Shown here in pieces: positions 1,377-2,270 of a DNA stretch of 64,000 bases (position 1 is the first letter of the stretch; each line of letters opens with the position of its first letter). Where the stretch lies: IMG/VR virus record IMGVR_UViG_2585427684_000001, positions 6,736 to 70,735 of that record, one strand, 5' to 3'. The notes under the pieces were generated by a model. The model saw nothing but the letters and a program-made list of their open reading frames with translations. It was not told the DNA's origin and did no database searches. Origin of the DNA: a virus (Duplodnaviria > Caudoviricetes). The position numbers and the translations under genes were made by a program.

Positions 1377-2270
1377 TCATAGGGTTTCGAGATAGGCGGC
1401 TATGAAGTGCGCCGCCGCTTCAGCATTGATGGCGTTTCCGTAGGCGCGCAGGCGTCCCACTCGGCTGGGAGCCCCATGAGCCAGCGGGAATGTGCCGGGT
1501 TCAACTGGCCGCCACTTTCCATCCCGGCAGAAGAGCCAGTCAGCATCTGCCCATAGGCCGTTAACCGGGCCGGGCTGCACATTTTGGCTAGACCCTGATT
1601 GGATGGCCGCGGCTTGTCCTTGTTGCCCTGGTCGTACTGGTAGTCCCCGCGGCGACTGTCGATCGCTGTTGGCGTTTGCCAGCCCGCGAATTCCACTTGC
1701 TTCCGAAGCTCTGATCGCCGGCATTCGGGATCGGGTTCGTAGGTATTGCCTCGGCCGTCGCAGGCTTTCGGAGTCGGCCACCCAGTACGTCCGATCCCGG
1801 ATATGCGGCGCACCGACGCCCGCAGACGGGAACGCAACAGCCCCGAAGGCATACGCCAGGGCTTCCACGTCAGCTTGTACAAGGTCGAGCCAAGGCTCTG
1901 CATCCTTGCTTGCAACCTGCTCTCCAAAGACGATTGCAGGCTGGCACTCGCTGATGAGCCAATGGAAGTGCGGCCAGAGGTGCCGCTTGTCATCAAACCC
2001 AGTTCCTGCGCCTGCCGCGCTGAAAGGTTGGCACGGACAGGAACCGGTCCAAACAGGTCCATCATCTGGCCAGCCGGCGCGGCGAAGGGCGTATGACCAA
2101 ACGCCGACGCCGGCGAAGAAGTGGCATTGGTTGTAAGGCTTGAGGTCATCGGGGTGCACATCCTCGATCGAGCGTTCGTCTACGTCGCCTGGCGCGATGT
2201 GGCCGGCAGCAATCAGGTTGCGGAGCCACTGCGCAGCGTATGGGTCGATTTCGTTGTAATACGCAGCCAT
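1377..2270 (-). CDS. DNA cytosine-C5 methyltransferase, large (alpha-like) polypeptide
   Basis: Motif [41 protein letters not shown]; no motif IX in this frame. Confidence 0.92.
1400..2065 (-). CDS. Overprinted (+1 frame) probable beta polypeptide of the C5 methyltransferase; start uncertain
   Basis: Open frame nested in the MTase gene; carries motif-IX-like [16 protein letters not shown] and two GW(P/Q)TP..D repeats. Confidence 0.7.

Follow-up and report, generated by a model that had tools for sequence, protein, structure and literature searches.

A phage C5 methyltransferase gene carries a second conserved protein in its +1 frame and probably encodes a two-chain enzyme

We have identified, in the 64-kb stretch of phage DNA analysed here (64,000 nt, called the window below), a gene that appears to encode both chains of an orphan C5 cytosine methyltransferase of the M.EcoHK31I type. 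We put the probability of this reading, in which the first chain (alpha) receives its recognition region and motif IX from the second (beta), at about 0.8. One E. coli enzyme is known to have this two-frame layout, which hundreds of related phage genes retain and which annotation usually records as one gene. An earlier note, made from the sequence of the window alone, had proposed such a heterodimer; the proposal is supported by the nested open frame and by selection in both frames.

Both chains are read from the reverse strand, as are all parts of the gene described below. Alpha, the 297-aa C5 cytosine methyltransferase chain, is the ORF at 1377..2270 with its stop at 1379-1377. Beta is an ORF of 253 codons in the +1 frame of alpha, running from an ATG at 2161 (1400..2161; stop 1402-1400). 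The beta ORF, 2161-1400, lies entirely within the alpha ORF, 2270-1377, and ∼760 nt are dual-coded. Beta consists, in this order, of a free leader, a conserved N-terminal part (residues 35-125, 1787..2059) whose DNA also encodes alpha motifs IV-VIII, an array of W-x-T-P modules that varies, and a C-terminal part (residues 197-246, 1424..1573) that is again conserved, is dual-coded with the alpha segment preceding motif X and contains a motif-IX-like stretch.

The alpha chain is a recognizable methyltransferase over its N-terminal part. The five motifs that the earlier note had listed for it, I, IV, VI, VIII and X, are all present: a motif I-like segment FFAGVG (residues 51-57, 2120-2094), PCQ of motif IV (residues 79-81, 2042-2010), GEQV of motif VI (residues 116-119, 1931-1914), RDR of motif VIII (residues 158-160, 1814-1776) and, in the motif X helix (1439-1401), GNAI at residues 278-281. 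In 92 sequences P79, C80, E117, R158 and R160, that is, the catalytic Pro-Cys, the motif VI Glu and the motif VIII Arg-x-Arg, are invariant. The conservation profile and pLDDT values mostly >85 delimit a conserved catalytic large domain at codons 1-166 (1773..2270). Over its full length alpha falls into phrog_363 (E-value 6e-90), a PHROGs family named ‘DNA methyltransferase’; in NCBIfam it has a weak dcm match and nothing else.

All matches to characterized methyltransferases stop at the end of the large domain. Pfam PF00145 covers alpha residues 74-171 only (E-value 1e-11, 45.3 bits with a cut-off of 22), and in the PDB the alpha profile matches M.HhaI (E-value 6e-16) over the large-domain part only, with the match ending near residue 170. 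The AF2 model of alpha (mean pLDDT 73.5) is confident at residues 1-170 and in a helix at 283-296 (pLDDT >90); it is unstructured at ∼180-280, with pLDDT <50 at ∼186-278. When this model was used as a Foldseek query, the top hits were M.HhaI, M.HaeIII, DNMT2 and DNMT1, with ∼170 aligned columns that correspond to the large domain alone. The small domain (variable region and motif IX) is absent on alpha from the Pfam, PDB and Foldseek matches and from the AF2 model.

An unusual arrangement is seen at the N terminus of alpha. Within residues 1-59 (2270-2094, reverse strand) a GDV...SIEDV stretch resembling the motif II/III region precedes the motif I-like FFAGVG, and the gap from motif I to PCQ is only ∼22 residues, versus ∼60 in M.HhaI. 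The profile alignment pairs alpha 38-66 with M.HhaI 4-32. The SAM-binding half of alpha may have a permuted strand order.

In a tblastn search 220 phage records match beta and 405 match alpha, in the same places. For comparison, 160 related loci were collected, some on viral contigs and others in genomes of Pseudomonas, Comamonadaceae, Burkholderiales, Enterobacterales, Rhizobiales, Desulfovibrio and others; alpha identity across the ∼160 loci ranges from 43 to 87%. In every locus (163/163) the +1 frame of alpha contains a match to beta. Stop codons were counted over the span of beta in the 146 loci with single matches. The beta frame is stop-free in 139 of these loci, with seven stops in total, near the ends, and the alpha frame in 144, with two stops; no locus is stop-free in the +2 frame (1889 stops), and each of the three antisense frames is stop-free in zero to six loci (542-1163 stops each). 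It is thus confirmed that the beta frame is open far beyond chance. Interruption of the nested frame in close homologs, which the earlier note had named as evidence that would speak against it, is not what the ∼160 loci present: the frame stays open and under purifying selection.

With 62% G+C, the gene consists of DNA in which long shadow ORFs occur often, so that one might take the beta frame for a chance open frame; a frameshifted pseudogene could also be proposed, given four loci in which one indel breaks both frames. We consider either version to have next to no probability, since the +2 and antisense frames carry 542-1889 stops in the 146 loci against seven in the beta frame, substitutions track the codon positions of beta, and at least 7839 database proteins match it. 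Nearly all of these proteins are unnamed or ‘hypothetical’, and no Pfam domain is recorded on the beta-matching proteins (at least 7839).

In the four loci in question (L142, L148, L150 and L163) a single indel in the module region breaks both frames together and yields alpha-N/beta-C or beta-N/alpha-C fusions in one frame; they are probably decayed copies or assembly errors. Because each of these indels shifts both genes, one mutation inactivates both chains.

The conservation of the two chains was compared in an alignment of 129 distinct relatives. In alpha, residues 1-166 and 234-297 show strong conservation and residues 167-233 none, which agrees with the earlier description of its VIII-X interval as low-information sequence; beta is conserved across this gap. 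Conservation of beta sets in with DLFGPVPV, just past ATG 2065, continues through a helix and a hairpin (...RLRASVRR) and each G-W-x-T-P, and extends from PARLT to the end; the conserved end includes a 13-residue stretch followed by -x-EW. In alpha the C-terminal conserved region (codons 233-297, 1380..1574) is made up of a conserved segment preceding motif X (1574-1440) and the motif X helix, and codons 167-233 (1572..1772) form an unconstrained read-through linker over the beta modules.

Where beta is conserved, the synonymous sites of alpha are constrained as well. At the conserved four-fold codons of alpha, third-position entropy is 1.6-1.8 bits at codons 1-70, 1.16 bits at codons 71-110, 0.44-0.58 bits at codons 111-150 and 0.38 bits at codons 251-270, and it returns to 1.87 bits past the beta stop. 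This drop is a classic mark of dual coding, and its onset coincides with the onset of conserved beta. In the module region the pattern is that of beta alone. Among 277 equal-length pairs of modules of the same type, the DNA is 75% identical and the translations are 82% identical in the beta frame, against 46% for alpha and 48% for +2, and 62% of the nucleotide differences fall at the third codon position of beta; as the pairs were picked by beta amino-acid similarity, the beta identity is inflated, while the codon-position skew and the stop-free test are less affected. Stop counts, conservation, entropy drop and codon-position skew refute the chance or pseudogene reading.

The alpha frame across the modules is open to a degree that has to be maintained. 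In 102 distinct module regions it contains no stop at all, versus 212 expected when the order of beta codons is shuffled; the shuffled sequences have 2.1 alpha-frame stops per region, and ∼15 of the 102 regions would be expected to be stop-free. As residues 167-233 of alpha are unconserved yet never contain stops, they make a meaningless but translated spacer. A need of alpha for its C-terminal 65 residues, including motif X, fits the stop-free middle. Both frames are under protein-level selection; the middle of alpha is not, and there the alpha frame is kept open.

These data also bear on the idea of a single polypeptide made by two programmed frameshifts, with ribosomes moving from the alpha to the beta frame after motif VIII and back before motif X. 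The product would have the order I-VIII, target recognition domain (TRD), IX, X, and the conserved blocks are indeed arranged colinearly with those of a canonical monomer (the alpha frame holding motifs I-VIII and X, the beta frame the modules and IX between them). Still, we regard such a double shift as very improbable: two long zones are conserved in both frames at once, which one path through the message cannot explain, the alpha frame is stop-free across the modules, a property needless for a shifted product, and the separate ATG of beta is conserved and, in many relatives, preceded by a Shine-Dalgarno sequence.

Three ATG codons come into consideration as the start of beta: 2161, 2149 (giving 249 aa by ORF translation) and 2065 (221 aa). 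The earlier note had described a nested +1 frame of 221 codons from ATG 2065 to 1400. The frame and the codon count stand, but the start does not, as ATG 2065 belongs to an internal Met-Met and the frame opens at ATG 2161. Among the 129 loci an ATG is found 34 codons upstream of DLFGPVPV (window 2161) in 99, at −30 (window 2149) in 71, and at one or the other position in 121, versus 55 with an ATG at −2 (window 2065). Many relatives read GAAAGGAG-y-AT-y-GA-r-G-ATG, that is, AAGGAG 8 nt ahead of the ATG at −34. In this window there is no good Shine-Dalgarno sequence at the candidate beta starts, the nearest being a GAGGA that ends 12 nt before ATG 2149. The ATG at 2161 is created by the codon of alpha Asp37, which is GAT in 114 of 126 loci, versus 17-50% GAT at Asp 9, 29, 31 and 42. 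The beta leader of ∼34 residues ahead of DLFGPVPV puts no constraint on alpha synonymous sites and is disordered in the AF2 model.

Motif IX in its canonical form, after Posfai and Kumar, reads L-T/N-P-x4-R/W-L-M/Q-G-F/L-P-x2-F/W. We used the pattern L-[TNSH]-P-x4-[RWKL]-[LVIM]-[MQ]-G-[FLYM]-P-x2-[WFY], which has a single match in the six frames of the window, at 1504-1457, and none in 200 residue shuffles. The match is a 16-residue stretch in beta (1457..1504), 18 residues ahead of the beta stop. In 97 betas L220, P222 and W227 are invariant, and G217-G218-Q219, H224-S225-R226, L228-M229, P232 and W235 are at least 90% conserved. The earlier claim that the end of beta fits motif IX therefore holds as regards a unique and near-invariant pattern match, and lacks HMM support: when the nested ORF was checked against the C5 methyltransferase profile as the note had proposed, none of the 97 beta members matched PF00145 even at E≤10. 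Since this check was negative, we base the assignment on the pattern match and speak of a motif-IX-like stretch.

Other searches with beta were equally sparse. PHROGs places it in phrog_1008 and phrog_31772 (E-value ∼1e-36), families that are both named ‘DNA methyltransferase’. Pfam and NCBIfam scans of beta gave no match, the PDB sequence search gave nothing relevant with beta alone or with the 97-sequence profile, and a search of the ESM Atlas gave no usable match. AlphaFold2 run on beta alone (pLDDT 62) placed residues 70-90 in a helix and residues 95-117 in a hairpin, with another, short helix over the motif IX residues. A VIA-align comparison of this model with the PDB representative set had a best Z of 4.0, over residues 67-123 only and to unrelated proteins; this outcome is neutral on a methyltransferase small-domain fold. 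An in-frame fusion of beta to PF00145 was seen once among the 240 matches listed, in a chimera (P0183), with no canonical single-chain bridge among them.

Alpha itself, as the earlier note had said, has no canonical motif IX. It does have a weak motif-IX-like RPVEPGTFP ahead of motif X, on nucleotides that also encode the motif-IX-like stretch of beta; the stretch bearing GTFP is conserved and has a loose likeness to the final part of motif IX, although its spacing is wrong. It may make a contribution, and because of it alpha might work alone. One could accordingly picture beta as a real overprinted protein with a role other than methylation (e.g. a regulator or another anti-defence function), alongside an alpha that is complete by itself. 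The lack of detectable homology of beta to known domains would agree with this picture, as would the conserved 45-residue segment with the GTFP stretch that alpha retains before motif X. We nevertheless judge it unlikely, because the beta C terminus, which hardly varies, matches the motif IX pattern in its exact spacing, alpha is without a structured small domain, beta accompanies alpha in one register in 163/163 loci, and the variable tandem modules of beta resemble a specificity region. A role of beta as the small domain of the enzyme is what we infer from the motif IX pattern, from what alpha lacks and from the precedent of M.EcoHK31I.

The array between the conserved parts of beta is where related genes differ most visibly. 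Beta proteins carry one to six W-x-T-[PTCAS] units (mode 3, median 35 aa), and some betas in the databases carry more than six. The beta of the window has two, in accordance with the two GW(P/Q)TP..D repeats noticed earlier: module 1 (33 residues, 1682..1780) with GWPTPKACD and module 2 (31 residues, 1589..1681) with GWQTPTAID. The unit cores were clustered around representatives; single linkage had merged nearly all of them through the common W-x-T-P head. This clustering gave 116 types, which form 152 architectures in 223 betas, and one module type can occupy various positions in the array. The array of the window has a type B module first and a type J module second. The nearest alpha relatives are 77-87% identical in the flanks, yet their module sets are wholly different: E-G in L004, two other types in L005, three modules in L006, C-x-G in L144, E-Q-O-A in L143 and five modules in L145. 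Modules are shuffled even between close relatives, and array size and alpha length vary together.

The suggestion of the earlier note that the beta repeats may form the target-recognition region gains from these comparisons, in that the repeats behave as exchangeable modules of a recognition type. Judged by architecture, the array looks as would be expected of a specificity-determining region. A more far-reaching view, which we hold to be possible though short of probable, is that beta is a detachable modular specificity subunit, a cytosine-methylase counterpart of the Type I HsdS; cassettes of ∼35 aa with W-x-T-P would each set a target and be shuffled to track host restriction, while alpha reads through a stop-free, meaningless linker.

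Some betas have acquired further sequence. In L159:1471-3141 beta is followed, in the beta frame, by a separate 170-aa ORF (2468-2980) with an HNH-like H-x-H-H...C-P-A-C-H motif, and in L152:1438-3120 an extra coding stretch after beta is fused to it; in both, the alpha frame is open for 400-500 nt across the extra stretch to reach motif X. The longer betas in the databases mostly have bigger arrays, and some are fused to HNH, PD-(D/E)XK, Dam or helicase domains. In L099:1450-2616 and L128:1486-2592 alpha has an insertion of ∼25 residues between FPL-x-DG and GNAI, and beta is lengthened by the same DNA; the insertions leave both frames open.

The two-polypeptide layout of M.EcoHK31I was reportedly described by Lee, Kam and Shaw in 1995; its beta has 176 aa. 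M.EcoHK31I (from E. coli HK31, YGGCCR) and M.EaeI are two-polypeptide C5 methyltransferases; in M.EcoHK31I both chains are required for methylation, and internal Met codons of beta also act as starts (PMC2836561, PMC3404938). [quoted passage not shown] The M.EcoHK31I beta carries motif IX, to which the pattern match in our beta would correspond, and its N-terminal part, which matters for association, has a conserved counterpart here. The likeness is one of layout, and the beta described here, at ∼250 aa, is longer than that of M.EcoHK31I. M.EcoHK31I belongs to a restriction-modification system, whereas the present enzyme is an orphan in a prophage early operon. For M.EcoHK31I, published work assigns the predicted target-recognition domain to alpha; here the variable modules are in beta, and the VIII-X interval of alpha is unconstrained. 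If the two enzymes are homologous, the textbook placement of the M.EcoHK31I recognition domain in alpha would need revisiting.

Tandem modules are familiar from the enzymes of the SPR/phi3T type, phage-borne orphans in which tandem target-recognising modules of ∼40 aa lie between motifs VIII and IX and vary in number and order between phages. The multispecific C5 methyltransferases of the Bacillus phages SPR, phi3T, rho11s and H2 are said to have been described by Wilke et al. in 1988 and Trautner et al. in 1996, works cited in PMC8936443 and PMC12707154. The present gene resembles them in having tandem exchangeable modules ahead of a motif-IX-like stretch; this is a likeness of architecture, from which multispecificity may be suspected here. 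The SPR/phi3T enzymes are single polypeptides read in one frame, whereas here the array is on a separate, overprinted chain. M.AquI (CYCGRG) is a split C5 methyltransferase with motifs I-VIII on alpha and IX-X on beta (PMC3404938). Its conserved motifs, too, are divided over two polypeptides, but the split is linear, while in the present gene motif X is on alpha and beta is nested in the other frame. No published description of this phage two-frame methyltransferase family was found in the literature searched.

In the M.EcoHK31I-like reading that we prefer, alpha (297 aa) would consist of the catalytic large domain and the motif X helix and would be made by reading straight across the spacer, and translation of beta (∼250 aa) in the +1 frame would begin at a separate ATG. 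Beta would dock on alpha as the missing small domain, and its modules would read the target sequence, each array recognising at least one target. Phages that exchange modules would then alter the host restriction sites from which their DNA is protected. Should specificity indeed lie in the modules, the shuffling would account for the way temperate phages adjust their protection against host restriction, and the modules would offer a set of small recognition cassettes with which cytosine methylation could be programmed. The gene is also a clean natural model of overlapping-gene evolution, since three regimes adjoin in it: both frames constrained, beta only, and alpha merely open.

The earlier note had expected standard annotation to miss the second gene, and this is what the records have: one frame is annotated, with alpha as ‘DNA cytosine methyltransferase’ and beta, if called, as ‘hypothetical protein’. 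The annotated frame is that of alpha in Salmonella phage SW3 and Erwinia phage Eho59 and that of beta in Pseudomonas phage PMG1. As each frame has PHROGs matches, each has already been annotated as a gene in some phage. It is probable that thousands of methyltransferases from phages and prophages, now described as single-chain, are two-chain.

The neighbours of the gene in the window are prophage early-region genes; one codes for a CI-like repressor and another for a sigma factor-like protein, and none was recognised as encoding a restriction enzyme or endonuclease. Outside the methyltransferase gene, on the forward strand at 2336-2563, lies an ORF of 75 aa with a lipobox-like LSLSGC.
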